Source: an uncultured Candidatus Saccharibacteria bacterium
GTDB taxonomy: Bacteria > Patescibacteriota > Minisyncoccia > Phycocordibacterales > CAIZLB01
NCBI GenBank assembly: GCA_964500215.1
Contig: CAZCNA010000001.1
Location: 1 to 54,600, forward strand
Reading direction: 5' to 3'
Length of the DNA stretch: 54,600 nucleotides
The notes beneath the pieces were generated by a model. The model searched no databases. It saw nothing but the letters and a program-made list of their open reading frames with translations, and had not been told where the DNA came from. Both the position numbers and the translations under genes were made by a program. Shown here in pieces: positions 1 to 51,266 of this stretch (positions are counted from its first letter, which is position 1; every line of letters starts with the position of its first letter).

Positions 1-665
<665 letters not shown>

Positions 666-21676: not shown

Positions 21677-23113
21677 CTAAAAAATGTGTGAAATGAGTTC
21701 TGAGAGAGAAAGTCGTGTTTGTTCACCAGTGTCGCGATCTCGAACAGTCACTGTGTCTTTTTTCTCATCTCCACTTTCACCGAGAGTATCGAAATCAACT
21801 GTCACGCAGAATGGTGTACCTATTTCGTCTTGTCGTCGGTATCGCTTACCAATGTTTCCGTTATCGTCAAAAGAGATTCTATCAAGTGCAATACCTCGAG
21901 CTGCGGCCTCTTTTCGGATATTTATCCAGACATCTTTTGCTTTTGCTACGAGTTCAGGTTTGTTTTTCAAGAGAGGAAAAACAGCAACAAGCACAGGAGC
22001 AACATTTTTTGAAAACTTCATAAATGTTCGTTTTTCGCCACCGAGTTCGTCTTCTGCGTATGCATTTGAGAGTACGGCGAGAACTGTTCGGTCAACACCA
22101 AAAGATGGTTCGATGCAATGTGGCGTGTATCGCTCTTTTGTTTCTTCATCGAAATAGCTCAAATCAACGGTGCTTGCGCCTGTATGTGCGGCGAGGTCAA
22201 AATCAGTTCGGTACGCGAGACCATAGAGCTCTTTTTTGCCGAATGGATAATCAAACTCGAAATCAATTGTTCGTTTTGAATAGTGCGCTCGATCGCCATC
22301 CCCCACTTCGAGTTCGTGAACATTGTTCTGGTTGAGACCAATGTCTTTTGTATATTCCCATACTTCTTTTCGGAGTTCTTCGAATACGCCGGCCCATTCA
22401 GCGGGCTTCACAAAATATTCAATTTCCATCTGTTCGAATTCTCGAGTTCGGAATACAAAATCACGAGGAGCAATTTCGTTTCTGAATGCCTTACCAATCT
22501 GTGCCATACCAAATGGAAGCTTTGGATGGAAGGTGTCGAGAACATTTTTGAAATTCACAAACATACCCTGCGCGGTTTCAGGACGGAGATATGAGATAGA
22601 TGTATCGTCTTGGATTGCGCCAACATTTGTCTTGAACATCATGTTGAACTGTCGAACATCACCGAGTGCATTGCCATCAGGGCTCTTGATTCCCTTCTCT
22701 TTTATGAGAGCATCCATTGCTTCGAGATTCATTCCTTTTGGATCAATCCCTGCATCTTCGAGAAGATGATCAGCTCGATATCGTTTTCTTGTTTTCAAAT
22801 CTTCAACAAGAGGATCAGCAAATCCAGCAACATGTCCAGAAGCTTTCCAAACATTCTGGTGCATCAAAATAGCAGCATCAACACCATACATATCTGTACG
22901 GTTTTCAACAAAACGCTTCCACCAGAGATTCTTTATATTATTTTTGAGAGAAACACCGAGTGGTCCGTAATCCCACGTACCAGCGAGACCGCCGTAAATT
23001 TCTGAACCTTGATAAATAAAACCTCGGCGCTTGGCGAGAGAAATGATGTTTTCCATTGTTGAAGGCTCTTTTTGTGAGCTTGTGTTGCTTGGGGTTGATG
23101 AATCTGTTGACAT
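21677..23113 (-). CDS. glyQS: Glycine--tRNA ligase (class II, alpha2 GlyQS type)
   Basis: LAKRRGFIYQGSEIYGGLAGTWDYGPLG, FRNEIAPR, GVDR. The track start at 23152 is a TTG. ATG candidates are 23113 and 23056 (MENIISLAK...); the N-terminus is uncertain. Confidence 0.9.
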   Translation of the reverse strand: MSTDSSTPSNTSSQKEPSTMENIISLAKRRGFIYQGSEIYGGLAGTWDYGPLGVSLKNNIKNLWWKRFVENRTDMYGVDAAILMHQNVWKASGHVAGFADPLVEDLKTRKRYRADHLLEDAGIDPKGMNLEAMDALIKEKGIKSPDGNALGDVRQFNMMFKTNVGAIQDDTSISYLRPETAQGMFVNFKNVLDTFHPKLPFGMAQIGKAFRNEIAPRDFVFRTREFEQMEIEYFVKPAEWAGVFEELRKEVWEYTKDIGLNQNNVHELEVGDGDRAHYSKRTIDFEFDYPFGKKELYGLAYRTDFDLAAHTGASTVDLSYFDEETKERYTPHCIEPSFGVDRTVLAVLSNAYAEDELGGEKRTFMKFSKNVAPVLVAVFPLLKNKPELVAKAKDVWINIRKEAAARGIALDRISFDDNGNIGKRYRRQDEIGTPFCVTVDFDTLGESGDEKKDTVTVRDRDTGEQTRLSLSELISHIF

Positions 23114-23180
23114 GATGAGGCTAACTATACGCTTCTTAGGCCTTTTTTTCAAGATTTCTGAATTGCGAGGCTACAGTTAC

Positions 23181-23210
23181 AAAAAGCCGCCCCTATCCTG
23201 GGGCGGCCCT
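23181..23210 (-). terminator. Rho-independent terminator of 23215..25164
   Basis: GCCGCCCC-AGGATA-GGGGCGGC followed by TTTTT on the minus strand, directly after the stop codon. Confidence 0.8.
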
Positions 23211-23214
23211 TTTC

Positions 23215-25164
23215 CTACTCTGTTACTTTATCCTGACCGTATATATAGTTTGGATCTTCCTCTATTTTGATATCGCGAGGACCGAGCATTGTTTCTACGA
23301 TGACATCCGAGAAGGCGTCTTTGCCTGCAAGGCGCTGATTATTAATCACTGTTGGACTGGTGCCTATTTGGCTCACACTTGGAGTGAGAACAACTTGGTA
23401 TGAGAATTCCTTGGCTGCAGATGTATACCCTACACCAGGACCGATATCGCCGAGAGTGAATGTGAGTTCACGTTTGTCAGCGTTGTATGTAAAGGCAGAA
23501 TTTTCTGGATACACTTTGTTAATCCATCGAACATAACTTGGGAGTGTTGTTGTGTATGTCACGCCTTTCACAGTGTTGAAAGAGTTTCCTACAGTCACCA
23601 TAACTGTATATGTACTTTCAAGCTCTGCCTTTGGTGGAAACGGACCTGTGTTTTCAAACGGACCAACACTTCGCACAAGGATAGAGTTGAATGCCAACCC
23701 TGATGCGACTTTTACTTCGCGAGAAACTGTTGATTTTATTTCTTCGGGAACATTATCTTCATTCAATCGCTTTCCACGAATTGTAAGTTCGACGTTTATA
23801 GAAGGACGACGGAATTCTGCGTTATTTTTCTCTGTTGGAGGAAGTGAAGCAAACGCAAACTGAACTCGGCCAACCTGGCCCGGACCGATTTGTGCGAGAT
23901 CTTCGAGTGTCGATTTATCCCATAGAATAGTACTGTCTTTTGATCGGTAGAATCCTCGATCCCCGCCCACCGTTGATTTATCAAGCATTGAACCTATAAC
24001 TTTTGCTTCGATAACAATGTCGTTGATTGGCACATCGAGATTATTCTGCCAAATGATTTCACCATTCACTGCATTTCCTGCTGTTGCGACATACACGGGA
24101 TCTCCTTTTCCGTTGAGAGCAATATCCGCGCCGAGGAATGGCTTTTTGACCGCGAGAGCGGCAGTCGTGTTCACAAAGATAGTGCCAATGTTTGATTCAT
24201 CGCGAGCATCCTCTGTTCCAGCATAAAATCTGAATACGCGTTCTTCATTATTTTCACCTACGATTTTCCCTCTCAAAATAATCTTTCGTTCTGCTCCGGG
24301 AGCAATATCTCCAAGATGCCATACATTATCCCCTGACAATGGAGCAACGTCAGAACTCAAATATTTGAATCCAAATGGATAATCCACTTTGAGCACAACT
24401 CCATTCACAACAGATGTAGAGTTTGATACGACATCAATCACAAATTCAGTTTCTTGGTTGGCTGTGATTTCTTTGAGGTATTTTACGTTCAACGTGATTG
24501 GTGAAGATCCGATGAAAATTGGATATTCTTTTTCTTTTACAAAAATAGTGTCTGTTTCAGGCACACGATATTCAAGGGTCACTTTGATAACTTTTCGTAC
24601 GTTTTCTTCTCCAAAGAGAACTGATTTCACATTTGTTCGAATAGTCTCTCCTGCCTTGATTGTACCCACAGGGACACGAGCACTCGACATTGGTGTTTTC
24701 TTGTCACCCGCTTCTCGGGTACCTTCGGGATATGTGACAATCATGTCAGTCAGCACCATATCTGTCTTGTTGAGGTTTGTTATATCCACGTCGAGCGAAA
24801 GTTCTTCGCCGGCAGGCGTAGATACAGGACCAATCAATTTAATATCAATATTATCTGAAGAAATGAGATTGCCTCCGCCTAGATATATATATGCAGCACC
24901 GGCGATTGCAGCAACGAGAACAATACCGGCAAAACCGAGGATGATTTTAAGAAATTTTGATGAAAAACCCTTGTAGCCGCCCGTGGCAGCTTCAGCCTTC
25001 TCTACAGAAATTGTAGAATCTGCATCCTCAGCAGAAGTCCCCCATGATGTATGCACAATAGTGGCATGCGGATGAAGTTTTCCACGATGTGGAGCTGGGA
25101 TAGTATCTGAATTTGAATAGAGCTTTTTCTTTAGTTGTTCAATTTTGCTATCATCTTGCGACAT
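23215..25164 (-). CDS. Membrane-anchored protein with a large repetitive beta-sandwich (CARDB/DUF11-like) ectodomain; function unknown
   Basis: 649 aa: cytoplasmic N-terminus, one TM helix (FLKIILGFAGIVLVAAIAGAAYIYL), then repeated ~100-aa beta-rich units. Confidence 0.6.
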   Translation of the reverse strand: MSQDDSKIEQLKKKLYSNSDTIPAPHRGKLHPHATIVHTSWGTSAEDADSTISVEKAEAATGGYKGFSSKFLKIILGFAGIVLVAAIAGAAYIYLGGGNLISSDNIDIKLIGPVSTPAGEELSLDVDITNLNKTDMVLTDMIVTYPEGTREAGDKKTPMSSARVPVGTIKAGETIRTNVKSVLFGEENVRKVIKVTLEYRVPETDTIFVKEKEYPIFIGSSPITLNVKYLKEITANQETEFVIDVVSNSTSVVNGVVLKVDYPFGFKYLSSDVAPLSGDNVWHLGDIAPGAERKIILRGKIVGENNEERVFRFYAGTEDARDESNIGTIFVNTTAALAVKKPFLGADIALNGKGDPVYVATAGNAVNGEIIWQNNLDVPINDIVIEAKVIGSMLDKSTVGGDRGFYRSKDSTILWDKSTLEDLAQIGPGQVGRVQFAFASLPPTEKNNAEFRRPSINVELTIRGKRLNEDNVPEEIKSTVSREVKVASGLAFNSILVRSVGPFENTGPFPPKAELESTYTVMVTVGNSFNTVKGVTYTTTLPSYVRWINKVYPENSAFTYNADKRELTFTLGDIGPGVGYTSAAKEFSYQVVLTPSVSQIGTSPTVINNQRLAGKDAFSDVIVETMLGPRDIKIEEDPNYIYGQDKVTE

Positions 25165-25242
25165 ACCAAAAGTATATCACACTCTCTCCGAACACATTGT
25201 CCAGAAAAACACAGGTTCCTCGGCGTTTATTGCCACACGAAC

Positions 25243-25845
25243 CTACAAATGACTTTCTTCGAGTGATGCGTAGATTTCTGCTTCCGCTTCCCTTCTCAAT
25301 GAGACAAATTGTTCGAGGATGGGTTGCGAAAATGAAATTTCCTTGAGAAATGGCGTGAGGCGTGCGTCGTTTGTTCCATATCCGAGCACTTTCAATAAAT
25401 AGAGCTTCGCGAGTAACTCAGTGGCGTCAATATATTCTGTGGTAGTCACAAACGAATCACGATCACTAAAGCAAAATGCAGAAACCGTTGATAAAATCTT
25501 GAACACCTCTTCATTACGGCCTTCTTCAGGCATGAGTCGTTTTGTAAACAACAATACACGTGCAAGCATCTTGCGAACAGGCAACGGTAACCGCTTATCA
25601 TAGAGTGAGATAAGCTTTCGAGCGCTTGTGATACGCCACATTTCTTTTCCGCGAACAACAGCGAGTGATGAAAACGAAAATTCCTGCAAAGAGTACCTAA
25701 GTTTTGATTTTAACAAACGCACACCTTGAGCAGAAGCTCGGATGAGACCCAGGTCTTTTGTAAACAATGTATACAGTCGATTAGATTCACCGATATCAAC
25801 GGCTTCAATCACAAATCCTTCTGTTTGATATATATGATATGACAT
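25243..25845 (-). CDS. recO: DNA repair protein RecO (short, 200 aa, no obvious zinc finger)
   Basis: OB-fold N-terminus YQTEGFVIEAVDIGESNRLYTLFTKDLGLIRASAQGVR. Its ATG overlaps the ileS stop (TAATG). Confidence 0.8.
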   Translation of the reverse strand: MSYHIYQTEGFVIEAVDIGESNRLYTLFTKDLGLIRASAQGVRLLKSKLRYSLQEFSFSSLAVVRGKEMWRITSARKLISLYDKRLPLPVRKMLARVLLFTKRLMPEEGRNEEVFKILSTVSAFCFSDRDSFVTTTEYIDATELLAKLYLLKVLGYGTNDARLTPFLKEISFSQPILEQFVSLRREAEAEIYASLEESHL

Positions 25846-28800
25846 TATGCACGAGCGACGTGAACTCGAAGTCGCATCGCATCGATAGCGATTTCTTCAC
25901 CTTCGTTTGCTCCAAATGATACAGATGTCGCCAATACAGCCTTACTGAGCTCTGTTTGATACTTCTTGATCAATGCTTCTGTCGCTTCATCTCCTGCGAT
26001 TGTCATAGAGATTGAGTCTGTTGGAGAAAGGCCGATTTTCTTTCGGATGTCTTGGATTGCGCGCATGAGTTCTCGGAGTGTTCCCTCCTCGATAAGTTCT
26101 GGAGTCAATTGTTGATCAACAGTCACAACATTTTTCACATCAGTCGCAACTGTCTGCCATTGTACGGCCTTAACATTTACTTCATCTTTGATAAGGTCGA
26201 TTGCTTGTGGGAATGTCTCGAATGTTACATCTGCATTCTGTACTGTGACACTCGCAAGTGGTTGTCGAACTTTGAGACTATGTTTTGCTCGGTCGGCAAG
26301 AGCGGCTTCTACTATCTTTCGCACAGCTGTCATTTTCTCGAGCACTTCTGTGTCTGTTTCCACTGTTATTGGCCACCGCTCGAGATGAACACTTTCCTTC
26401 TTTGTGCCTCGTGTAAGTTTCAAATACAAATCTTCTGCAAAGAACGGCGTAAATGGCGCCATAATAAGTGACAATACATATAATACGTATGCGGTTGTAT
26501 CGATGGCCTGTTTCTTGTCTGCAACATCATCACCCTTGTATCTATCTCGTGATCGTCGGAGATACCATGTTGAAAGATCATCAACGAGATCCATGAGTGG
26601 TCGCGCGGCTCGATCAATCTCATATTTTTCAAAAGCAGCTGTTGTCGCATTCACAGTTTCATCAAGTCGAGCAAGAATCCATGTGTCGAGCATATTTGTA
26701 CTTTGTGGTCGTTCGAATGTGCCGGCATATTCACCCGCATATGTCTCATAAAATGTATGTACGTTACCAAGTCGATTGAACAACTTTTTGTTTACTTCAT
26801 CGAGACCTTTTTCTGAGAATAATACTTCTTCACCATGTACCGCCGGTGAAGCCATCAAATAATATCGGAGGGAATCCGCGCCATATTTTTCTACCGTCGG
26901 CATGAGATCGGGATAATTTTTGAGACTCTTTGACATCTTTCGGCCATCTTCAGCGAGAATGAGACCGTTCACAACAACATTTCGATATGGAGCTTTGTTG
27001 AACAATCCCACACACATAACGAGCATGAGATAAAACCACCCTCGAGTTTGGTCGAGACCTTCTGCGATGAAATCAGCAGGAAAAGCTGAACTGCCATCGG
27101 CGAGTAATGTATCTTTTTTCTCAAATGGATAATGCTGACTAGCAAAAGACATTGATCCCGAGTCGTACCACACATCAAATACTTCAGGAATTCGTCGCAT
27201 GACATCCCCTTCTGCATTCACCCATGTGACATCATCAATATATGGTCGGTGCAAATCGAGTTCATACTCTTCATTCTTTGGAAGCTGTTTGAAATCAATT
27301 GCATGAAGAGATGCGGTCGCGTCAGATGTATCTTGCCAATGACCTCGAATCATATCTCGAATAGTCTTCCCCTCGGCGATGAGCTTCGCCAATCGGAGAG
27401 GCAATCCATGCGTAATAATGAGAATATCCTCATTCTTGTGCTTTGCATCTATTTCATACAAGAATTCAGCAACACGTTTTTTGACATCAGCAACAGACTC
27501 GCCATTCGGCGTTCGCTTTGTCATGCGTTCTTCGTTATTTTTGAAATATGCAAATCGCTCCGTCCACGTGCCACCTTCAAACTCCCCTGCGTTCACTTCT
27601 CGGAGTCGTTCGTCGTATATGATTTTTGTTTTATCAAATCCAATTGTCTCTGCCACAAGCTCCGCTGTCTGCTTTGTTCGTTTGAAATCTGAAGCATAGA
27701 TAATAGTCACACCTTTTTCTTTGAGTTCTTCGGCGCTCTTTTGCACTTCACCTACTCCCTTTTCTGTAAGACTGAATTTGTTGAGATCAATAGAGTTAAT
27801 GATGTCTTTTACATTTGATTCAGATTCGCCATGTCGCATCAACACAAAATTGTTTCCGTTTGAAACGATTTTTTCTTTGAGCTCTGCAATTGACCCAATG
27901 AGTTCGATTGCTCCGGTTTGTTCGCCTCGCCATACAGGAAGCGGTGCTCCCCAATATCGACTTCGAGACATTGCCCAATCACGTGCGCCTTCGAGCCATT
28001 TGCCGAATCGTCCTTCGCCAATCTCTTTTGGTACCCAATTCACTTTGTTATTTTCAGCAATGAGCTGGTCTTTCATGGCAGTTACTTTCACAAACCATGA
28101 CGATGTCGCAAAGTTGAGAAGCGGTGTGTCACATCGCCAACAATGTGGATACGAATGAATATATTTTTCTTTTGAAAAGAGAGCCTTTCGTGCAGCCAAT
28201 TGTTTTATCACTTCGATGTCTGTCTTTTGGTGATCCCCTTTTGGCTTCGCCGTCATGCCTGCAAATACAGTCACTTCAGATTTGATTGTACCGTCTGGAA
28301 GAACATGATGAATAACAGGCAGATTGACTGCGCGTGCGAGATTCATGTCATCTTCGCCGAAGGCTGGTGCAATATGCACGATACCTGTACCATCTGTAGC
28401 CGTTACAAAATCCGCGTTATATACCTTCCACGCTTGTGGTCGCTTCATTTCGTTATCACCCTGCAATGTGTTTGGTGCGGTGTAATATTCAAACGGAGGC
28501 TTGTATGAATGTCCGGCAAGCTGTGCGCCTGTGAGTTCTGCGATGACTTCGTGTGCTTCCTTGATAACTTCAAGTCTATCTTTTGCAACGATGTATGTTT
28601 CTTTTGAGCCGTCTTCTTTTGTGACAGCGGCTTTCACATAGGTGATGTCAGGATTAACAGCAAGGGCCACGTTCCCAGGAAGCGTCCAGGGTGTAGTTGT
28701 CCACGCAACGAAAAATGTGCCTGGTTCATCGACGAGTTCGAACTTTGCGTACGCTGATAGATCCGTGATGTCTCTGTATGCACCCGGCTGATTTGTTTCT

Positions 28801-29402
28801 GCATTTGAAAGGACAGTCTGACATCGAGGACAATATGGCATCACTTTGTATCCTTCATAGACGAGACCCTTTGTGTGCAATTCTTTGAAAGACCACATCA
28901 CCGATTCCATGAATGAAGAATCCATTGATCGATAATCGTTTTCCATATCCACCCATCGTCCGAGGCGTGGAATGATTCGTTTCCATTCATCCGCATATCG
29001 AAGCACACTTTCGCGCGCAGCTTTGTTAAAGACATCGATACCGAGTTCTTCGATTTGTTTTTTGTTTTGAAGACCTAATTCTTTTTCGATAAGGTTTTCA
29101 ATTGGAAGACCGTGACAATCCCATCCCCATCGTCGAGGCACGCGAAAACCGCGCATTGTTTTGTATCGTGGAATAACATCTTTGAGTGTAGTTGGAAGAA
29201 TATGACCATAATGTGGAAGTCCCGTTGCATATGGTGGTCCATCATAAAAGACGAAGTTGCCATGAGGGGCATCCTTGGTGAGTGTTTGTTCGAAGATATT
29301 GTGAGATTCCCAATATTCTAATATCTGGTGCTCTCGCTTCCCTGCTGGAGTTTGCTCCAAAACAGGTTGTTCAGTTGTCGGGTTGGCGTCTTCGTTGGTC
29401 AT
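25845..29402 (-). CDS. ileS: Isoleucine--tRNA ligase carrying an in-frame internal histidine-phosphatase domain
   Basis: PHYGH (HIGH, residues 63-67), WTTTPWTLPGN editing domain, CWRCDTP, KMSKS (822-826). 1185 aa, roughly 200 aa of which is the insert described below. Confidence 0.95.
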   Translation of the reverse strand: MTNEDANPTTEQPVLEQTPAGKREHQILEYWESHNIFEQTLTKDAPHGNFVFYDGPPYATGLPHYGHILPTTLKDVIPRYKTMRGFRVPRRWGWDCHGLPIENLIEKELGLQNKKQIEELGIDVFNKAARESVLRYADEWKRIIPRLGRWVDMENDYRSMDSSFMESVMWSFKELHTKGLVYEGYKVMPYCPRCQTVLSNAETNQPGAYRDITDLSAYAKFELVDEPGTFFVAWTTTPWTLPGNVALAVNPDITYVKAAVTKEDGSKETYIVAKDRLEVIKEAHEVIAELTGAQLAGHSYKPPFEYYTAPNTLQGDNEMKRPQAWKVYNADFVTATDGTGIVHIAPAFGEDDMNLARAVNLPVIHHVLPDGTIKSEVTVFAGMTAKPKGDHQKTDIEVIKQLAARKALFSKEKYIHSYPHCWRCDTPLLNFATSSWFVKVTAMKDQLIAENNKVNWVPKEIGEGRFGKWLEGARDWAMSRSRYWGAPLPVWRGEQTGAIELIGSIAELKEKIVSNGNNFVLMRHGESESNVKDIINSIDLNKFSLTEKGVGEVQKSAEELKEKGVTIIYASDFKRTKQTAELVAETIGFDKTKIIYDERLREVNAGEFEGGTWTERFAYFKNNEERMTKRTPNGESVADVKKRVAEFLYEIDAKHKNEDILIITHGLPLRLAKLIAEGKTIRDMIRGHWQDTSDATASLHAIDFKQLPKNEEYELDLHRPYIDDVTWVNAEGDVMRRIPEVFDVWYDSGSMSFASQHYPFEKKDTLLADGSSAFPADFIAEGLDQTRGWFYLMLVMCVGLFNKAPYRNVVVNGLILAEDGRKMSKSLKNYPDLMPTVEKYGADSLRYYLMASPAVHGEEVLFSEKGLDEVNKKLFNRLGNVHTFYETYAGEYAGTFERPQSTNMLDTWILARLDETVNATTAAFEKYEIDRAARPLMDLVDDLSTWYLRRSRDRYKGDDVADKKQAIDTTAYVLYVLSLIMAPFTPFFAEDLYLKLTRGTKKESVHLERWPITVETDTEVLEKMTAVRKIVEAALADRAKHSLKVRQPLASVTVQNADVTFETFPQAIDLIKDEVNVKAVQWQTVATDVKNVVTVDQQLTPELIEEGTLRELMRAIQDIRKKIGLSPTDSISMTIAGDEATEALIKKYQTELSKAVLATSVSFGANEGEEIAIDAMRLRVHVARA
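27267..27860 (-). other. Histidine-phosphatase (PGAM/PhoE/CobC-like) domain inserted within ileS (about residues 515-712)
   Basis: NNFVLMRHGESESN (RHG catalytic motif; His524 codon at 27831-27833), ASDFKRTKQTA, REVNAGEFEGGTW, EDILIITHGLPLR (second catalytic His). Flanked by the IleRS blocks YWGAPLPVW and DLHRPYIDD...EVFDVWYDSGS. Confidence 0.8.
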
Positions 29403-29483
29403 ATATTTATAAAATAAGCGCTTTTATAGTAGCACTTTATGAACAAAAAATGAACGTAGTCTTATGAAATGATGAAAAATATA

Positions 29484-29533
29484 TAAAAAAGAGACCCCCT
29501 GAGAGCGACAGTAACGTGCGCTCCCAGAGGGTC
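29484..29533 (-). terminator. Strong rho-independent terminator (15-bp stem plus TCTTTTTT), about 80 nt upstream of the ileS ATG
   Basis: On the minus strand: GACCCTCTGGGAGCG-CACGTTACTGT-CGCTCTCAGGGGGTC-TCTTTTTT. Stems at 29519-29533 and 29493-29507. Confidence 0.8.
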
Positions 29534-30071
29534 CGGGTGGGGGGATTCAGCGTCTGGAGGGACGGAAAACCCGTAAAGGCTGCCGATGCATGGGCGCCCA
29601 ATTGCAATATCCTTTGGAAAGGCGCTTTTGGGCCCGAAGCTGTCGGTGACTTTTAGTGTTTTTCTTGGTCGCAGCCATGGTCTTTACCGGCAGCGAGCCC
29701 CTTGGTGGTGGCTGTAGCGGGTCAAGCCACCGTGCTGCCGCGTCGGGCGAGCAGCCTTCCGTTCGGGCTTGCGAGGCGTGGCCTCCGTCGCCGTCGGAAT
29801 GTATCCAGTCAATTTCCGATGACCGATGGTGCGGCTCACGTGCGCCAACAACGGGCACTCATCCTGGGGCAGAAACTGCTGGCGAGGAATGCCGAGGCTA
29901 TTGTGAAGCTCCGGCAAGCAATGCTTTTGAACGCTCTCACGAGGTTCATTGGAATCAGTGATGACCAGCACACGGTCATCGACGTACACTTCAATCATGG
30001 GTCAATAATAGGTTTGTTTGATTTTCGTTTCCACGTCGACTGGCACCCTTCGTGTGTTCAGTCCGAGGGGT
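29534..30071 (-). other. GC-rich transcription unit of unknown product (candidate 104-aa basic ORF at 29684..29998, or a structured RNA / ileS leader)
   Basis: Bounded by a consensus promoter and a strong terminator. GC is 42/60 on line 29701-29760, against 22/60 on a typical coding line (35041-35100). Nested helices are present, e.g. CGGCAGC-AC-GGTGGCT-(11 nt)-AGCCACC-(12 nt)-GCTGCCG. There is no Shine-Dalgarno sequence before the ATG at 29998. Confidence 0.4.
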
Positions 30072-30100
30072 ATTATATCATATATATACATAATAGTCAA
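30072..30100 (-). promoter_or_regulatory. Consensus promoter TTGACT-17 nt-TATAAT driving the GC-rich unit
   Basis: Reverse complement: TTGACT (30095-30100), a 17-nt spacer, TATAAT (30072-30077). Confidence 0.6.
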
Positions 30101-30185
30101 TTTGTGGTGTTGTGGGGCTTTGTTGAGCCTCCCCTACACACAGACTTCACCCTAATAGCATCTATCCGCTATCGTTTCGTCAACA

Positions 30186-31118
30186 TTATGAAAATAAACC
30201 GGCGAGAGCTTTTCGAACTTTATATTTGAGTGTTCCGCACTTCTTTGGGCAGAGTGCCTGATTGTTTCTTGTCTCCTGCTCACACGTTTCGCAACAAATA
30301 AATTGATAGTGGCAGATATCATCAGAACAATTTACAAATCGCTCACATGGAATGTGACATCGTATGCATGAACCAACGACTGAACGCTCCTTTGTGGTGT
30401 CCATTGTAATTCGATTATCAAACACATAGAGAGCACCTTCGAAATCTTGGCCTGGAAATTTTTCCATATATGTTGCCATTCCCCCATCGAGTTGATATAC
30501 ATCGGTGAATCCTTTCTTCATCAAATATCCAGAGGCTTTTTCACATCGCACACCGCCGGTACATACGGTCACTACTTTTTTATTTTTGTATGGTTTAAGC
30601 TTTGACACAATCTGAGGAAGTTCACGAAAGTTGCTCATACCAGGATCGATTGAGCCTTTGAAATGTCCAACTTCAAATTCGTATGAATTTCTCATGTCGA
30701 TAATCTGAAAATCTTCACCTTTTTCGTACCATTCTTTGAGTGTCTCTGCGGGAAGATGAACACCTGTGAGTTTGTTTGGATCGACATCATCATCACCGAG
30801 GCGTACAGATACAATTTCAGGGCGCACTTTCACTTTCATTTTGTCGAATGAAGATCCATTGCCTTCGCTCTTTTTGAACACAACATCAGAGAATTGCCCG
30901 AATGTTCCTTCAGAACCATCTTGTCCGTGAAGAACTTTGCAATATGTTTCGATGTCTTTTGTTTTGCCTTCGAGAGTGCCGTTTATTCCTTCATGTGCAA
31001 TGAGCACACGTCCCTTGAGGCCGAGTGTTGAACACAAGTCTTTGTGCCATTTCATAAAACCTTCAGGATCGGCAACGTGTGTGTATTTGTAGTAAAGAAT
31101 AATTGTATATTCTGACAT
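30186..31118 (-). CDS. trhO: Rhodanese-domain protein of the UPF0176/YceA family (tRNA U34 hydroxylase TrhO-like)
   Basis: ILYYKYTHV...RVLIAHEGINGTLEG, rhodanese active-site loop VCTGGVRCEKA, Cys-rich C-terminus. Confidence 0.8.
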   Translation of the reverse strand: MSEYTIILYYKYTHVADPEGFMKWHKDLCSTLGLKGRVLIAHEGINGTLEGKTKDIETYCKVLHGQDGSEGTFGQFSDVVFKKSEGNGSSFDKMKVKVRPEIVSVRLGDDDVDPNKLTGVHLPAETLKEWYEKGEDFQIIDMRNSYEFEVGHFKGSIDPGMSNFRELPQIVSKLKPYKNKKVVTVCTGGVRCEKASGYLMKKGFTDVYQLDGGMATYMEKFPGQDFEGALYVFDNRITMDTTKERSVVGSCIRCHIPCERFVNCSDDICHYQFICCETCEQETRNNQALCPKKCGTLKYKVRKALAGLFS

Positions 31119-31163
31119 AACAATAAATGGATTGAGATTGTATCTAATATATACGTGCTGCGC

Positions 31164-32954
31164 TTACATCTTTGTAGGGACAGAGATGCCGAGAAGCCAC
31201 AGTCCTTTGTGCATAACTGTTTCGAATGCTTTCACTAATCCAATTCTATATGCTGATGCAGCGTCGTCTTTCACAATAATCTGGGTTGATGCATAAAATG
31301 AGTTGAATGTTGCGGCAAGTTCCATACAAAATGTCGCGACAAAATGTGGGGCTTGTTCTGCGTATGCTCGTGCGACAACTTCTGGGAAGCGTGTGAGCAA
31401 TCGTTCGAGTTTGCCTCCTGCCCAGTCGAGTGAACCCGCAGCTGCGATAGTTGGGTTGTCGAGTGATGGAGTAACGCCTTCTTTGTCGGCTTTCTGGAGT
31501 ACGGATGTGGCACGCACTGTTGAATACTGGAGATATGGCCCTGAATCGCCCTCAAATGAGAGTGACTTTTCTGGATCAAAGACAATGTCTTTGCCTGTTG
31601 CCTGTCGGAGTACAGTGTATTTGATTGCAGCTACTGCGACTTGTTGTGCAACTATTTCTTTTTCTGCGGGAGACATTTCGCGTTCAGCCATTTTGAGAAG
31701 GGCCATTTCATTCATATCTGCGAGCAATGATTCACCCGTGATGGCGTCCCCTTTTCGTGAAGACATCTTGCCCGTTGTGAGTCGAAGCATACCGTGAGAA
31801 ATATGTCGCTGTTTTGTTCCGATCTCTGGAAATAAAATGCTTGTTGCTTTAAGCACCACTTTGAAATAATCATCCTGCTCGTTTGCAGTCACTGTGATAC
31901 CACTGTCGTATGGATATGCGGCATATTTCAATTGTGCCAATCCCATTTCCTTTCCTTCGTATGTTGGAAGTCCGAATTTGTTTATGAATACACGAGTGTG
32001 GAGGCCGTATTTTTCACCAGGGAAAATAATAGCGCCATTACTTTCTTCGAATACAGCGAGGCCATGAGGTGCGGTATTTGCTTTTACAATTTCGATACCT
32101 GGAGATGTTGCCTGACTTTCAAAAATATATTGATCGAATGTTGTTCCGAGAATTTTGTATAGTTCTTCGAAGTGTTCGAGACTCCATTCTTTTCCTTTGT
32201 CGTACAATTCGTTTGTTGCAGCATCACTTCGGTCATATATCTTTTTGTTGATTGCTTGTACCTCTTGTTCAATCTTTTTGAATTCTTGTACTTCTGATGA
32301 ATCTTCTGCCTTACCTTCAGCGGCCTGTTCTATTGCATAAAATTTTTGTGCACCTGTTGCATATGCCTTACCAAGAAAATCCACTCTGTCATTGAGTGCC
32401 ATTGATGCGTCAGGAAATGCGGCATCCATGAATCGAAGTCCCCACAATGTGAGAGCCACGTGTCGGCCCACATCACCTTGATAACAAAATCGTCTTACTT
32501 CTGCTCCAGCATATTCGCCGAGGCGAGAAAGAGATTCACCAATAGTATTGGCCATCAAGTGACCGATATGGAATACCTTGAATGGATTTGGGTCAGTATA
32601 TTCGTATGCAATCTTTTTGCCTTTTTGTGATGTCCCCTTTCCGTATGATTCGTGTGTGAGAACTTGTGTTAATTCACTGTTGATAACCTGTGGAGTGACA
32701 TAAAAGTTGATAAAGCCAGGACCAGCAACTTCAATTTTGGAAATGCCCGGGATCTGCTGCGTTTTGAGTTGATCAACGATAGTGAGCGCCAATGTGAGAG
32801 GGTTGGCTTTTTGCTCTTTTGCGCATGCCAAAGCGATGTTCGTCGAATAATCGCCGTTTGTCATTTCGGCAGGTCGGTCGAGGATAATCTGTCTTGCCTC
32901 GATATTGAGTGTGTGGAGAGCCTGCGCAAGTGCAGACTGCAAGGTATCGTTCAT
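31164..32954 (-). CDS. argS: Arginine--tRNA ligase
   Basis: YTDPNPFKVFHIGHL (HIGH), MSSRKG (KMSK-like), and a C-terminal DALR anticodon-binding region ending ...GISVPTKM. Confidence 0.95.
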   Translation of the reverse strand: MNDTLQSALAQALHTLNIEARQIILDRPAEMTNGDYSTNIALACAKEQKANPLTLALTIVDQLKTQQIPGISKIEVAGPGFINFYVTPQVINSELTQVLTHESYGKGTSQKGKKIAYEYTDPNPFKVFHIGHLMANTIGESLSRLGEYAGAEVRRFCYQGDVGRHVALTLWGLRFMDAAFPDASMALNDRVDFLGKAYATGAQKFYAIEQAAEGKAEDSSEVQEFKKIEQEVQAINKKIYDRSDAATNELYDKGKEWSLEHFEELYKILGTTFDQYIFESQATSPGIEIVKANTAPHGLAVFEESNGAIIFPGEKYGLHTRVFINKFGLPTYEGKEMGLAQLKYAAYPYDSGITVTANEQDDYFKVVLKATSILFPEIGTKQRHISHGMLRLTTGKMSSRKGDAITGESLLADMNEMALLKMAEREMSPAEKEIVAQQVAVAAIKYTVLRQATGKDIVFDPEKSLSFEGDSGPYLQYSTVRATSVLQKADKEGVTPSLDNPTIAAAGSLDWAGGKLERLLTRFPEVVARAYAEQAPHFVATFCMELAATFNSFYASTQIIVKDDAASAYRIGLVKAFETVMHKGLWLLGISVPTKM

Positions 32955-47623: not shown

Positions 47624-47696
47624 ACTTATAGGGGGTGTCTATCGGGAATTGAACCCGAATTGAGAGTTCCACAAACTCCAGTGTTAACCTTTACAC
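47624..47696 (-). tRNA. tRNA-His (GTG) with a genome-encoded G-1; CCA not encoded
   Basis: Reverse complement: G-GTGTCTA..GGAGT-TTGTGGA-ACTCT..TCGGG-TTCAATT-CCCGA-TAGACAC-C. Folded by hand. Confidence 0.85.
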
Positions 47697-47796
47697 CATA
47701 GACACCATATTGTGCTTCGAGAAACCCCGAAGCGCATCAGAATATAACACATATTTTGGCCTTTTGTACAGCCATCCGACGGTCACTCTCCTCCCC

Positions 47797-48411
47797 CTAT
47801 TTGTAACTCGGTGGCAGCTCACTCACCCCAGCGAGATGATTACTCATACGAGCAAGCGCATAGAGAAGACTCGAAAGTCGATTGAGGTAGGCCAAGGCGG
47901 AATCTGAAATGCACACAATATCCCCAGATTCTGCGGATTGCGTATTTTGTTCGATCAAGGCTTTCAATTCATCATTCCGAGCAACCACTCGACGCTCTGC
48001 ACGACGAGCAAATGTTCGAGCAACATCAAAGAGAGCTGCCAACTCAGTTCCTCCTGAAATAAAGAACGTCTTTATAGGAGGCAACTGCTGTTCGATAGTA
48101 TTGATGATATGTTCGGTGTGAGGCACTTTGCCTTCTGGGAGAGGCTTTGGAAATCCAGCGACTTCAGCTTGGATGATAAACAATGTTTCTTGTACAGAAT
48201 GCACAATTGCATCGAATGACAGAGGCCCTTCTTCGAGCGGAACACTGTATCCGCTTTTTGTACTGGCGATTTTTACTAATCCTAAAAAAGAGTTCACTTC
48301 ATCGAGCGCACCAAGCGCTTCTGCAACGAGTGTGCCTTTTGAGATTCGCTGCCCAGGTTTTGAATTAAATGTTTTTGTAGTACCACCGTCCCCTTTTCCT
48401 GTGAACAACAT
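47797..48411 (-). CDS. PduO-type ATP:cob(I)alamin adenosyltransferase family protein
   Basis: TGKGDGGTT...ISKGTLVAEALGALDEVNSFLG and ...YLNRLSSLLYALAR. Confidence 0.8.
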   Translation of the reverse strand: MLFTGKGDGGTTKTFNSKPGQRISKGTLVAEALGALDEVNSFLGLVKIASTKSGYSVPLEEGPLSFDAIVHSVQETLFIIQAEVAGFPKPLPEGKVPHTEHIINTIEQQLPPIKTFFISGGTELAALFDVARTFARRAERRVVARNDELKALIEQNTQSAESGDIVCISDSALAYLNRLSSLLYALARMSNHLAGVSELPPSYK

Positions 48412-48457
48412 ATGAAGAATTTATTAACGAATTATAAATACAGATACTTTTTATGAT

Positions 48458-49243
48458 TTATTGAACTATTCTGCCGAGCGGACCAGTTTTGGACAATACA
48501 TCATACAATTCTACATATGGCACAAGCACTTCAGGTTCGCCCGCTGCATACGCTGCAACTTGGTACTGATTGAAGATAAATCGAATACCTGCGTCGGTGA
48601 TAACAAACGCTTCGTAATTTTCGGCTTTTGGAGCGGCACCTTGGGCGATGAGGTCGCTATCACCGTATTTGTTTTTCAAGTCCTTTTGCACATATGTGGC
48701 GATACGCTTGAGATACTCACTGCCGGGTGTAAAAAGAGAATCGAGTGTCATTACATTTCCTGTTTGTGTATCAAAGTTAAACGTAACTGTCATATTGCCG
48801 GGATGTGCTGCTCCTGCTTCAAAATATGTCTCTGACATACGAAACGCCACGATATTTGGGAGTATTGTGAATACCTCAGATCTGTATCCAATATCGAGAC
48901 TACTCACCTCTCCTTGCATAGGCGCTATTTCTTGAGAAGATTTTTTGAAATCGTTCGTGAGATTCAAAATTTGATCATAAATTGTTTTATTTATTTTTCG
49001 TTCTGCGTCTTTGTTTTGTAGACCAGAAACTTCAGGATATTCTGTATTAATTTCATATCCTGCGGTGATGTTTTTTTCTGATGTTTTCTTTGGGGTGAGA
49101 ATAGGCTGACTGAGGGCGGGCGTTGATGTGGAGTTCTGAAGTGGACTATGTGCGCGATCCTTATTTAATTCGCGAAGATACAAAAACACAGTACCTCCGA
49201 TAATGATTATTAATATAAGTATGAGTCCTACATTTTTCTTCAT
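48458..49243 (-). CDS. Membrane-anchored DUF3298/DUF4163 (RsiV/PdaC C-terminal-like) protein
   Basis: N-terminal TM helix. YPEVSGLQNKDAERKINKTIYD and YFEAGAAHPGNMTVTFNFDTQTGNVMTLDSLF. The ATG at 49243 is preferred over the GTG at 49249. Confidence 0.7.
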   Translation of the reverse strand: MKKNVGLILILIIIIGGTVFLYLRELNKDRAHSPLQNSTSTPALSQPILTPKKTSEKNITAGYEINTEYPEVSGLQNKDAERKINKTIYDQILNLTNDFKKSSQEIAPMQGEVSSLDIGYRSEVFTILPNIVAFRMSETYFEAGAAHPGNMTVTFNFDTQTGNVMTLDSLFTPGSEYLKRIATYVQKDLKNKYGDSDLIAQGAAPKAENYEAFVITDAGIRFIFNQYQVAAYAAGEPEVLVPYVELYDVLSKTGPLGRIVQ

Positions 49244-49282
49244 GTCCACATTGTATCACCACCCTGCAAAATGTTATCCACC

Positions 49283-49310
49283 AAAAAAGGCCCCTTGTTG
49301 GGGCCTTTTT
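49283..49310. terminator. Terminator following tRNA-Leu
   Basis: AAAAAAGGCCCC-TTGTT-GGGGCCTTTTT. Confidence 0.75.
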
Positions 49311-49316
49311 GTCATG

Positions 49317-49400
49317 TGCGCAGGAGAAGACTTGAACTTCCATACCCTTGCGGGCGCTACCACCTCAAGGTAGTGCGTCTACCAGTTTCGCCACCTGCGC
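49317..49400 (-). tRNA. tRNA-Leu (GAG), long variable arm
   Basis: Reverse complement: GCGCAGG..CTACC-TTGAGGT-GGTAG-(variable arm CGCCCGCAAGGGTAT)-GGAAG-TTCAAGT-CTTCT-CCTGCGC-A. Confidence 0.85.
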
Positions 49401-49410
49401 ATGTGCAGGT

Positions 49411-49438
49411 ACTATACCAGTTTTATATATTATTTCAA
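49411..49438 (-). promoter_or_regulatory. Promoter TTGAAA-16 nt-TATAGT, 10 nt upstream of tRNA-Leu
   Basis: Hexamers at 49433-49438 and 49411-49416 on the minus strand. Confidence 0.55.
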
Positions 49439-49482
49439 CTGTCTCACATACTGTACGGATAATCTGCAGGCGACTTTTGCAC

Positions 49483-49516
49483 AAAAAAACCCTGAGCGTA
49501 GTACTCAGGGCTTTTT
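49483..49516. terminator. Terminator after rplS
   Basis: AAAAAAACCCTGAG-CGTAGTA-CTCAGGGCTTTTT. Confidence 0.75.
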
Positions 49517-49530
49517 GTATGTTTGTTAGA

Positions 49531-50007
49531 TTATGCTGCAACTTCTACGGGAGAGGCTTCTTCTGTAACTTCAGCTGATTCTTCTGGAACGTTTGTGTTT
49601 GCTGACATCATTTCCATTTTCATTCGCTTACTGATTTCCTTTGCTGCCTTTGCTCGGATGTAATAAAGTTTTGATCGTCGAACCTTTGCTCGCTTTGTCA
49701 CCTCGATCTTGTCGATTGATGGAGAGTAAAGTGGGAAAATTCGTTCTACGCCGTATCCATTAGATACCTTTCGTACTGTAAATGTAGCGCCTGCTTCAGC
49801 ACCGTGCTTTCGAGCGAGGACGAGACCTTCGAATACCTGAAGTCGTGTCTTACCTTTTTCCTGAATTTTTTGGTGAACTCGAACTGTATCTCCAGACTTC
49901 ATGTCGAGATTCTTTCGAGCGTCCTTATTGATCTTTGCAACAGTTACTTTTGTAGATCGTGGAGCTGTACCACCTTTGTTTTGAGTTGTTCCTTTGATTG
50001 CTGCCAT
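49531..50007 (-). CDS. rplS: 50S ribosomal protein L19 (with N- and C-terminal extensions)
   Basis: [31 protein letters not shown]...[29 protein letters not shown]. Confidence 0.95.
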
Positions 50008-50033
50008 GGCCCTGCAATATAACAAAACTTATC

Positions 50034-50783
50034 TTATAAGTCAAAGGTTTCTAGGGCTTTTTTGAAGTCCTCGGGTAATGGAGCCTCAAATTGGTGTGCC
50101 TTACCGTCAGGACCTTCTACCTCTATTGTCCTCGCGTGAAGGGCTACACGGGCAAACCCAAGCTCTTTGGGGTGGTTGGGCGCATAGAGACTATCTGCCA
50201 CTACGGGGTGGTTTATAGCCTTAAAATGGACGCGAATCTGGTGCGTACGGCCTGTTTTTGGATACGCTTCTATATATGTAAAATTGAGCGGAATTTCACC
50301 TCCTTTGTGCTGGGGAGATTCTTTTCGGGCAATTACCTTGTATTCCGTCGTTGCTGGACGAAGTTCACCTCGGGCAAATCGTTCAGCTGACCATTTTCGA
50401 AAATCACTCTTACTTCGGCCAATCGGTCGGTCAATAGTGCCTTTGTCTTCTTTTACAAGGCCCCAAACGAATGCATTATATGTCTTCTTTACTTCTCTCT
50501 CCTGGAAAAGTGCCTTGAAATGGCTAAACGCCTCCTGCGTTTTGGCCACAATCATAACGCCAGAGGTCTCTCTATCCAACCGATGCACAATGCCAGGACG
50601 ATACAATATAGTACCGTTTTGGAGGGTCATTGGTTCGCCCACTTCTTTCATATCGGGATACTTCTCCAAAAGCCAATCGCAAAGTGTCTTTTCTACGGTT
50701 TTTCCGTCAGGATGAACAACCAAGCCAGAGGGCTTGTTGATAGCCAAGAAATCGTCATTTTCGAATATGATGGTTGGGGTCAT
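50034..50783 (-). CDS. RluA/RluD-family pseudouridine synthase (no S4 domain)
   Basis: FLAINKPSGLVVHP, HRLDRETSGVMIVAKT, GRTHQIRVH. Start at the ATG at 50783. Confidence 0.9.
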   Translation of the reverse strand: MTPTIIFENDDFLAINKPSGLVVHPDGKTVEKTLCDWLLEKYPDMKEVGEPMTLQNGTILYRPGIVHRLDRETSGVMIVAKTQEAFSHFKALFQEREVKKTYNAFVWGLVKEDKGTIDRPIGRSKSDFRKWSAERFARGELRPATTEYKVIARKESPQHKGGEIPLNFTYIEAYPKTGRTHQIRVHFKAINHPVVADSLYAPNHPKELGFARVALHARTIEVEGPDGKAHQFEAPLPEDFKKALETFDL

Positions 50784-50866
50784 TGCCAGTACTATAGCAC
50801 AGACATTGAAAAGTTTTGAAAAATAGTTTATGATGCCCCTATTCAGTGAAGGCACTGAAAACAGCC

Positions 50867-50939
50867 GGGAGATTAGCTCAGTTGGTAGAGCAACTCGTTT
50901 ACACCGAGAAGGTCACAGGTTCGAGTCCTGTATCTCCCA
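50867..50939 (+). tRNA. tRNA-Val (TAC)
   Basis: GGGAGAT-TA-GCTC-AGTTGGTA-GAGC-A-ACTCG-TTTACAC-CGAGA-AGGTC-ACAGG-TTCGAGT-CCTGT-ATCTCCC-A. Confidence 0.9.
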
Positions 50940-50945
50940 CAAATA

Positions 50946-50978
50946 TAAAAAGGTTCCCATTTTGTGGGAGCCTTTTTT
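50946..50978. terminator. Terminator after tRNA-Val (has both A and T tracts, usable in both directions)
   Basis: AAAAA-GGTTCCCA-TTTTG-TGGGAGCC-TTTTTT. Confidence 0.7.
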
Positions 50979-50994
50979 GTTCACGAAAAACATC

Positions 50995-51191
50995 CTCGTT
51001 CAAAGAGACTTGTGAGCGCGAGGGCGCGAGTACATACAATAAAAAGGAATCGGTCCTTACAGGACCAGTACAGGTTTCGCATCGTACTCGCCTCCGCGTT
51101 GCTCCGGCTCCGTGCGATATGCTCAACCCTTTCGATTCCTCGACGGAGGCGCAACTTTGCGCCTCCTCGGGCGCACATTCGCTCCGCTCAT
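50995..51191. other. GC-rich ~190-nt multi-helix element between tRNA-Val and tRNA-Arg (candidate small ncRNA; strand and family unassigned)
   Basis: 36/60 GC on line 51061-51120. Helices: GGAGGCGCA-(4 nt)-TGCGCCTCC, GCGAGTAC...GTACTCGC, GGTCC-(5 nt)-GGACC, and end-closing TGAGCG...CGCTCA. The only ORFs here (75-128 aa) are track ORFs overlapping on both strands with implausible protein sequence. Confidence 0.35.
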
Positions 51192-51266
51192 TGGTGCCCC
51201 CGCGAGGAATCGAACCTCGAATAACGGCTTAGAAGTCCGCAGTTATATCCATTTAACTACAGGGGC
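51192..51266 (-). tRNA. tRNA-Arg (TCT) with encoded CCA
   Basis: Reverse complement: GCCCCTG-TA-GTTA-AATGGATA-TAAC-T-GCGGA-CTTCTAA-GCCGT-TATT-CGAGG-TTCGATT-CCTCG-CGGGGGC-A-CCA. One A-G mismatch closes the anticodon loop. Confidence 0.8.

Follow-up and report, generated by a model that had tools for sequence, protein, structure and literature searches.

An apparently intact histidine phosphatase nested within the isoleucyl-tRNA synthetase of Patescibacteria

Introduction

The ileS gene found in a 54,600-nucleotide stretch of DNA from an uncultured Candidatus Saccharibacteria bacterium (GenBank assembly GCA_964500215.1, contig CAZCNA010000001.1, positions 1 to 54,600; hereafter the window) encodes a type-2 isoleucyl-tRNA synthetase (IleRS) in which a full and apparently competent histidine phosphatase is nested, in frame, within connective peptide 3 (CP3). 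Across relatives, the phosphatase subfamily occurs in three arrangements: nested in CP3, as in the window and in most relatives; placed in either of two other loops, situated on both sides of the KMSKS half of the catalytic domain; or encoded by a separate gene lying just upstream of an insert-less ileS. On balance, the best explanation is probably, if by no great measure, that the protein is a bifunctional IleRS whose catalytically competent phosphatase is an old, selected partner of the synthetase in Patescibacteria.

Aminoacyl-tRNA synthetases (aaRSs) are among the best-studied enzymes, and the catalytic add-ons known to be embedded in them are editing domains. The initial annotation of the window, made from the sequence alone, was aware of no described IleRS with this architecture, and full-text literature searches have likewise returned no account of it, or of any aaRS in which a histidine phosphatase is embedded. 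The components belong to well-known families and accessory aaRS domains are a known theme; what sets this case apart is that the module is nested, spans a broad clade, has been relocated and has a counterpart in a split operon. The split loci, the alternative insertion sites and the further enzyme modules of some relatives add to the initial reading. In this article, we describe the host synthetase, the inserted module, its conservation and its movements among relatives, and the explanations that may account for them.

The host synthetase

A single unbroken open reading frame (ORF) on the minus strand encodes both the synthetase and the insert, as originally read, and its main parts are the following.

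25845..29402 (-): ileS ORF, 1185 aa plus stop, a type-2 (eukaryote-like) IleRS with a nested phosphatase (ORF translation, Pfam, TIGR00392, match to 8c8v, AlphaFold2 (AF2) model)
27867..29402 (-): IleRS residues 1-512, comprising the first Rossmann half, the connective-peptide core, the CP1 editing domain, CP2 and the N-terminal part of CP3 (beta-beta-alpha, 484-512) (Pfam, alignment, AF2)
29202..29216 (-): HIGH signature, PHYGH, residues 63-67 (motif)
27279..27866 (-): inserted module, residues 513-708 (limits set by mapping of the flanks and by orthologues that lack it)
25845..27278 (-): IleRS residues 709-1185 plus stop, comprising the C-terminal part of CP3 (LP.NE..ELDLHRPYID), the second Rossmann half, the SC fold, the anticodon-binding domain and the C-terminal DUF5915 tRNA-binding domain (Pfam, alignment, AF2)
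26925..26939 (-): KMSKS signature, residues 822-826 (motif)

The identity of the synthetase is carried by several independent comparisons. The NCBIfam ileS equivalog TIGR00392 matches it with 873.5 bits against a cutoff of 621.4, and Pfam finds tRNA-synt_1 in two stretches with PF00300 between them, followed by Anticodon_1 (PF08264, 906-1049) and DUF5915 (PF19302, 1062-1184). The closest solved IleRS by sequence is IleRS2 of Priestia megaterium (8c8v, E = 1e-217), followed by 1ile and the yeast and Candida enzymes; type-2 enzymes (8c8v, 1ile, yeast) give E-values of 1e-217 to 1e-191, against 1e-88 to 1e-85 for the type-1 enzymes 1ffy and 8c9e. Foldseek likewise ranks type-2 above type-1 structures, with TMt values of 0.84-0.92 to the former (8c8v 0.84), using a full-length AF2 model of pLDDT 92.9 and pTM 0.86 in which the insert region reaches pLDDT 93-98. 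When type-2 IleRS structures are superposed on this model, none of them covers the insert.

The expectation that the HIGH and KMSKS motifs and the editing domain had survived the insertion was borne out. In an alignment of 120 homologues, H64 and G66 of the HIGH signature are invariant and H67 is at least 90% conserved, while K822, M823 and K825 of KMSKS are invariant. The editing motifs WTTTPWTL (234-241) and GTGIVHIAPAFGEDD (338-352) are both present, with T235-T237, H343 and D352 invariant in the same alignment, and the editing-domain structure 1wk8 matches the window protein at 5.5e-25. Judged from these features, the protein is a complete type-2 IleRS that has kept an intact synthetic site, CP1 editing site and set of tRNA-binding domains. 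It is not one of the specialised forms for which curated models were compared: Pfam finds no GNAT domain in it, the ileS_w_GNAT model NF040702 gives 305 bits against a cutoff of 1999, and the MupA/MupB resistance-IleRS models give 697-708 bits against a cutoff of 1900.

Position and size of the insert

The initial annotation took the linker at this point of IleRS to be normally short, and the alignment with 8c8v agrees: query residues 20-496 pair with 10-462 and residues 714-1096 with 485-864, leaving 22 residues in 8c8v (462 to 485) against 217 in the window IleRS (496 to 714). Insert-less ileS products align to query (q) positions q24-510 and from q716 onward, running through the site as ...ELxxxSGxxVxDLH... 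(for example ...GSLIELQKKSQKELPRNDAGEVDLHRPYID...), and across relatives the N-terminal flank ends at q512-515 and the C-terminal flank starts at q706-708. The span first proposed for the insert, 27267-27860, translates exactly to residues 515-712. The segment is absent from both the reference IleRSs and the insert-less orthologues, and is thus not a normal IleRS subdomain.

CP3 of Candida albicans IleRS comprises residues 473-534, and the subdomain is variable among IleRS proteins (PMC7191050). Query residue 510 aligns to residue 497 of the C. albicans enzyme, within those limits, and the insert is therefore nested in the middle of CP3. In the AF2 model, strands 490-493 and 499-501 and helix 505-511 lead into the inserted domain, after which the chain returns to DLHRPYID. 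Base composition and GC content show no break across the insert.

In domain order and motifs (Rossmann fold, CP1-CP3, anticodon-binding and DUF5915-type domains), the window IleRS resembles P. megaterium IleRS2 (8c8v) and Thermus thermophilus 1ile; besides the length at the insertion site, it differs from these references in the loss of the CP3 zinc-knuckle cysteines, which are replaced at residues 493, 496 and 729 (RGEQT / VNAEG; approximately 27214-27926). The CxxC...CxxC knuckle, as found in the T. thermophilus and P. megaterium IleRS2 enzymes, persists in 34 of the 120 close homologues, as it does in two relatives, P0226 and P0249, that carry their phosphatase elsewhere (site B, see below).

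The phosphatase module

The initial annotation had read the insert as a full histidine-phosphatase fold and proposed a profile search, which returns PF00300 with 124.4 bits against a gathering score of 21.7, covering positions 2-175 of the 194 in the profile. All the motifs it had quoted are found, including RHG (R523/H524), FKRTKQTA, REVNAGEFEG and ITHG. The features of the module are the following.

27324..27845 (-): Pfam His_Phos_1 (PF00300) match, residues 520-693 (E = 5.8e-36)
27831..27836 (-): R523-H524 of the RHG motif, phosphate-binding Arg and nucleophilic His (PhoE/PspA alignment, conservation)
27678..27680 (-): R575, second phosphate-binding Arg, in FKRTKQTA (PhoE/PspA alignment, conservation)
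27597..27599 (-): E602, predicted proton donor, in LREVNAGEFEG (PhoE/PspA alignment, conservation)
27408..27410 (-): H665, second catalytic His, in ITHG (PhoE/PspA alignment, conservation)

The best solved sequence matches of the insert are Hydrogenobacter PspA 4ij5 (6e-13) and Geobacillus PhoE 1h2e and 1ebb (1e-12), and R523, H524, R575, E602 and H665 align with the catalytic residues of both PhoE and PspA. Modelled alone, the insert is predicted with high confidence to fold as a self-contained domain (pLDDT 96.5, pTM 0.92), and its closest Foldseek neighbours are 4ij6 (PspA) and 1h2e (PhoE), with TM 0.76 and probability 1.00, then Rv2419c. The likeness to PhoE/YhfR (1h2e, 1ebb), PspA (4ij5) and Rv2419c extends to the fold (TM 0.72-0.76), a length of about 200 aa and the R-H/R/E/H set; these enzymes, in contrast, are only 21-26% identical to the insert and free-standing, whereas the insert is nested in an aaRS.

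A glycolytic gap filler, i.e. a phosphoglycerate mutase hidden inside IleRS, is a highly unlikely identity for the module. The short archaeal-type model dPGM_arch is among its top NCBIfam matches (85-97 bits) and the Schizosaccharomyces pombe mutase structure 1fzt is among its best matches in the Protein Data Bank (PDB), but the dPGM equivalog cutoffs are missed by a wide margin (pgm_1 44.4 bits against 81.7, dPGM_arch 85-91 against 225, and all PRK dPGM models far below cutoff) and the best structural neighbours are phosphatases. The dPGM mutases carry E-R-H-Y-G after the acid Glu together with a mutase-type C-terminal tail. The insert instead reads L-R-E-V-N-A-G-E-F-E-G and lacks such a tail, the domain, of about 195 aa, ending some 35 residues past H665 with a straight return into CP3. 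Cutoffs of the specific phosphatase models are missed as well (CobC TIGR03162, 85-91 bits against 162.9; PspA NF045917, 72-77 against 350; SixA, 33 against 74.5), and GpmB also stays below its curated cutoff. Since no specific phosphatase or mutase model is reached and the acid Glu is followed by V-N-A-G, the module is best placed as a phosphatase-type member of the family to which no substrate specificity can be transferred. The insert is thus a complete branch-1 histidine phosphatase, most likely one of the short PhoE/PspA-like enzymes rather than a mutase, and apparently catalytically competent.

Conservation and spread among relatives

Two sets of relatives were compared: a close set, made of the best 120 matches among 90%-identity clusters (52-60% identical; NCBI, JGI, ENA and Logan assemblies), and a deeper set of the best 150 representatives of 50%-identity clusters, at which depth 104 inserts were aligned. 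PF00300 occurs together with the IleRS domains in all 120 close clusters. Where a name is given, the entry reads either 'class I tRNA ligase family protein' or 'isoleucyl-tRNA synthetase' and is assigned to Paceibacterota or Patescibacteria, source names that agree with the relationship to Parcubacteria and the Candidate Phyla Radiation (CPR) suggested earlier. In the close set, R523, H524, R575, H665, E635, R643, S571, G549 and N517 are invariant and E602 is kept in 119 of 120. The 104 deeper inserts retain R523 in 102, H524 in 103, R575 in 102, E602 in 99 (with Asp in three more) and H665 in 103. Mean identity to the query over the 120 proteins is 0.48 for the insert, compared with 0.55 for the editing domain, 0.53 for the anticodon-binding domain and 0.32 for the C-terminal domain.

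This pattern indicates that the catalytic residues of the insert are under purifying selection and excludes a decaying relic, and the near-invariance of these residues in more than 200 relatives sustains the earlier suggestion that the module is potentially active. It also bears on the idea that the domain is non-catalytic, either a spacer of purely structural use, a platform for docking, or a sensor whose ligand binding regulates IleRS with no turnover. The variability of CP3 among IleRS proteins and the full-length pTM of 0.86, which suggests a defined orientation of the domain, would suit such a role, which is nevertheless improbable: the catalytic set is near-invariant in sequences of only 38-60% overall identity, at all insertion sites and in the free-standing copies, and in pseudo-enzymes it is usually the nucleophile or the acid that goes missing. 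A pure sensor in which these very residues are required for binding is less easily dismissed.

The breadth of the relatives likewise decides against an artefact of assembly or gene calling. A chimeric ileS-phosphatase join, which the initial annotation had wished to see excluded, has a probability close to nil; only the a priori oddity of the architecture speaks for it, while the same in-frame architecture is found in hundreds of independent NCBI, JGI, ENA and Logan assemblies, with conserved junctions, no compositional break and a confident single-chain model. Recent horizontal transfer was rejected too, given the base composition and the breadth among relatives.

Relocation within the synthetase

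The flanks of every phosphatase domain in 270 relatives were mapped to query coordinates, defining the following insertion sites.

Site A (CP3): q512-515 / 706-708, 211 copies
Site B: q889 / 896-905, 7 copies
Site C: q755-766 / 766-776, 4 copies, plus 2 preceded by a GNAT domain
Site A': q731 / 734, 1 copy

At site C, the phosphatase follows directly after HYPF and precedes FPADFIAEG, and at site B it lies at the junction preceding the anticodon-binding helices. Direct alignment finds the canonical CP3 uninterrupted in the proteins of site B (P0226, P0249) and site C (P0184, P0179). Four proteins hold two copies of the phosphatase (A+B in one, C+B in two and A+A' in one), plausibly representing relocation intermediates. 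All copies at all sites retain R-H-R-E-H, save for one E-to-N change. In this mapping, which follows sequence order only, the phosphatase is never found at a terminus or in CP1, and is always nested between q510 and q900.

Besides the phosphatase, other small enzymes have settled in some of these synthetases. A GNAT domain accompanies His_Phos in relatives P0258, P0267 and P0268, a NUDIX domain lies inside CP1 (q221-263) in P0209 and P0260, P0250 carries an alpha/beta serine hydrolase (Ser_hydrolase, q775-786) and P0211 an AAA_18 P-loop domain (q755-775), one of these sister proteins reaching 1859 aa. The co-inserted modules give generic matches only (APS/shikimate-kinase-like P-loop with E of about 0.02, MutT/ADPR-type NUDIX, GNAT), from which no functional theme emerges. 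The modules do show that the IleRS lineage of the window protein behaves as a platform accreting small-molecule enzymes.

A split form at the orthologous locus

A search with the insert alone yielded 16 free-standing proteins of the approximately 190-aa class, the closest being P0121 (44% identity); this search missed even the fused IleRSs, owing to a word-index limit, and is uninformative on whether other aaRSs carry the domain. The P0121 gene begins 3 bp after argS and ends 5 bp before ileS. A scan of the species-representative genomes with P0121 gave 24 loci, in metagenome-assembled genomes labelled Candidatus Staskawiczbacteria, Patescibacteria or 'Saccharibacteria'. In all 24, ileS lies downstream of the free-standing phosphatase gene on the same strand, directly adjacent in 17 (with a gap of at most 21 bp in 16) and separated by one intervening ORF in the other 7. 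The ileS of every split locus is insert-less, aligning to the query at approximately 24-510/519 and 716/718 to the end with 5-7 codons in between, and the free-standing phosphatases keep all catalytic residues.

The gene order of the split loci, argS - phosphatase - ileS - recO - DUF11 protein - proS, corresponds to that of the window, argS - trhO-like gene - ileS(+phosphatase) - recO - DUF11 - proS, for which the synteny comparison provides these anchors.

31164..32954 (-): argS, upstream anchor
25243..25845 (-): recO-like gene, downstream anchor

The loci are therefore orthologous and hold the phosphatase in two configurations. The syntenic block, 21677-32954 in the window and shared with the loci L010-L033, brings three aaRS genes together within about 11 kb. 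The gene between argS and ileS in the window (30186-31118, minus strand), which has no counterpart at that position in the split loci, encodes a protein with UPF0176_N, Rhodanese and Rhodanese_C domains, an architecture that we take to be that of the TrhO/YceA-type tRNA U34 hydroxylase family.

The trees are too poorly resolved to give the direction of change between the fused and split forms or a count of losses. Free-standing and inserted domains share a mean identity of 33%, compared with 31% among inserted domains themselves, and neighbour-joining (NJ) trees built for the IleRS body and for the phosphatase domain have very short internal branches with the outgroups nested inside; the phosphatases of Staskawiczbacteria group in a single clade, but their IleRSs are scattered over three places.

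Why the phosphatase stays with the synthetase

The co-occurrence of fused and split forms offers Rosetta-stone-type evidence suggesting a functional association. As in other Rosetta-stone pairs, the two activities are fused in most lineages and adjacent as separate genes in another, with the differences that here the fusion is nested, not end-to-end, and that the partner occupies at least three internal sites. For co-expression alone, an operon or a fusion at one end would do. That the module has repeatedly come to lie internally near the KMSKS half, always with its active site preserved, suggests that it must be physically close to the synthetase. Taken together, the occurrence as a split operon and the several insertion sites suggest that the association itself is under selection, the selected trait apparently being the pairing of IleRS with the phosphatase.

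The main rival explanation is a housekeeping phosphatase (phosphoserine, sugar-phosphate or nucleotide) that, in a reduced genome, hitch-hikes on ileS as an essential and constitutively expressed gene, linked to it by expression or gene economy and not by mechanism. We regard it as a tentative possibility. It would account for an insert that matches generic phosphatase models and stays below the curated cutoffs of CobC, PspA and GpmB, and the accretion of GNAT, NUDIX, serine-hydrolase and P-loop domains suggests an IleRS tolerating assorted small enzymes. Yet, although an operon or a terminal fusion would be enough for co-expression, the phosphatase is nested at three or more internal sites and never terminal, two-copy intermediates keep both active sites, and the split-off phosphatase stays upstream of ileS in all 24 genomes. 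Such persistence through repeated rearrangement exceeds what mere tolerance predicts.

Several observations nevertheless weigh against a selected partnership. Operon adjacency and fusion could also be explained by selection for co-expression alone. The insert is present in 103 of the best 150 representatives at 50% identity and missing from 47, about a third, and three unfused IleRSs with informative flanks, P0174, P0188 and P0200, have no phosphatase gene within 3.5-4 kb, in loci whose synteny differs. Some lineages can thus do without the partnership, and these absences also speak for the rival. With a mean of about 0 (standard deviation 6.5), the net charge of the insert does not support direct RNA binding. 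Finally, and again in favour of the rival, remote free-standing relatives (32-37% identity) occur in contexts unrelated to IleRS: one (L004 2436-6588) at the end of a phosphonate-type ABC-transporter operon beside a deoC/aldehyde dehydrogenase/Bmp nucleoside cluster, another (L006 3571-4608) adjoining a gene of the nucleoside 2-deoxyribosyltransferase family and a third in a GCS2 context. These surroundings give a weak hint of nucleotide or sugar-phosphate substrates.

Under the favoured explanation of a bifunctional IleRS, the phosphatase would cleave a phosphomonoester by way of phospho-His524; R523, R575 and H665 would hold the phosphate, and E602 would serve as the acid. Its job would be tied to that of IleRS, the pair working together in cis or as a complex. 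The substrate would most likely be either a phosphate carried by the acceptor end of tRNA(Ile) or a nucleotide-type phosphoester, such as AMP or a 3'/2'-phosphorylated adenylate, that arises or binds at the synthetic site on its ATP/AMP side, and could possibly be a protein phosphosite or an unrelated metabolite. The roles floated in the initial annotation, all as speculation, were hydrolysis of an Ap4A- or ppGpp-like by-product, repair of a tRNA 3'-end phosphate and a hitch-hiking metabolic enzyme. A bolder version, which seems rather doubtful to us, is that the phosphatase constitutes a third active site of the aaRS, acting on a ligand that IleRS binds or makes: a phosphate that blocks the acceptor end of tRNA(Ile), a phosphorylated adenylate or another nucleotide by-product or inhibitor at the ATP side of the synthetic site, or a phospho-residue of the synthetase. 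If true, it would mean a new aaRS-linked step of repair, detoxification or regulation, and the GNAT, NUDIX, serine-hydrolase and P-loop modules of sister proteins would be part of the same IleRS-centred toolkit of Patescibacteria.

Comparison with known systems and significance

The nearest precedent for a hydrolytic excursion with its own active site in the connective-peptide region is the CP1 editing domain of IleRS, ValRS and LeuRS, which the window IleRS also has. CP1 is universal, hydrolyses aminoacyl esters and has a different fold, whereas the insert is a lineage-restricted, predicted phosphomonoesterase in CP3. Among curated families, ileS_w_GNAT (NF040702) describes an IleRS with an extra enzyme domain, and some relatives of the window protein join GNAT to His_Phos, although the GNAT domain is missing from the window protein itself; literature searches found no paper describing the ileS_w_GNAT architecture. 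A paper on SB-203208 was considered as a precedent and set aside, the IleRS-like and GNAT enzymes it concerns being separate and not fused.

Branch-1 His_Phos domains are also joined to nucleic-acid or nucleotide enzymes in the mycobacterial RNase H/acid phosphatase (NF005567) and in PFK-2/FBPase-2. These resemble the window IleRS in the pairing, but are end-to-end fusions whose partners are not aaRSs, and the NF005567 model matches the insert with 77-81 bits, below its cutoff of 326. Among the relatives, P0211 pairs His_Phos with a P-loop kinase-like domain.

The behaviour of the insert, catalytically intact and conserved throughout a large bacterial radiation, nested in CP3, relocated at least two times and staying by ileS when split, implies either an unrecognised biochemistry connecting phosphate esters with isoleucine charging or a striking case of enzyme accretion, here on an essential translation factor in ultra-small genomes. 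The natural fused, relocated and split variants constitute a directly testable system. Many such proteins are annotated at NCBI only as 'class I tRNA ligase family protein', and metabolic reconstructions of CPR bacteria may miss enzymes hidden in housekeeping genes.

Other observations

At the locus of the unfused IleRS P0188 (L037 1-1222), bAvd and RVT_1 genes lie about 2.3 kb upstream of ileS, a pairing with a reverse transcriptase (RT) that is typical of a diversity-generating retroelement; the sister contig L038 has a shorter ORF in place of the RT gene.

Between the trhO-like gene and the start of ileS, some 0.5 kb of the window (29490-30010) stands out by a GC content of about 0.60, where the surrounding region has about 0.43. 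Rfam gives no match to this patch at the gathering threshold or at E<=1, and its ORFs are without Pfam match. On the ileS strand, the patch folds better than shuffled sequences (z = -3.3, with 0 of 100 as good), compared with z = -1.55 on the other strand, and its end is formed by a long GC hairpin with a U-run behind it, about 85 nt upstream of the ileS ATG. An unannotated structured RNA is one possible reading of the patch, a small foreign island another.

Elsewhere in the window, positions 1-663 (minus strand) hold the 5' 594 positions of a bacterial large-subunit rRNA gene that runs off the window start, and tRNA genes for His-GTG, Leu-GAG, Val-TAC and Arg-TCT are clustered at 47631-51266.

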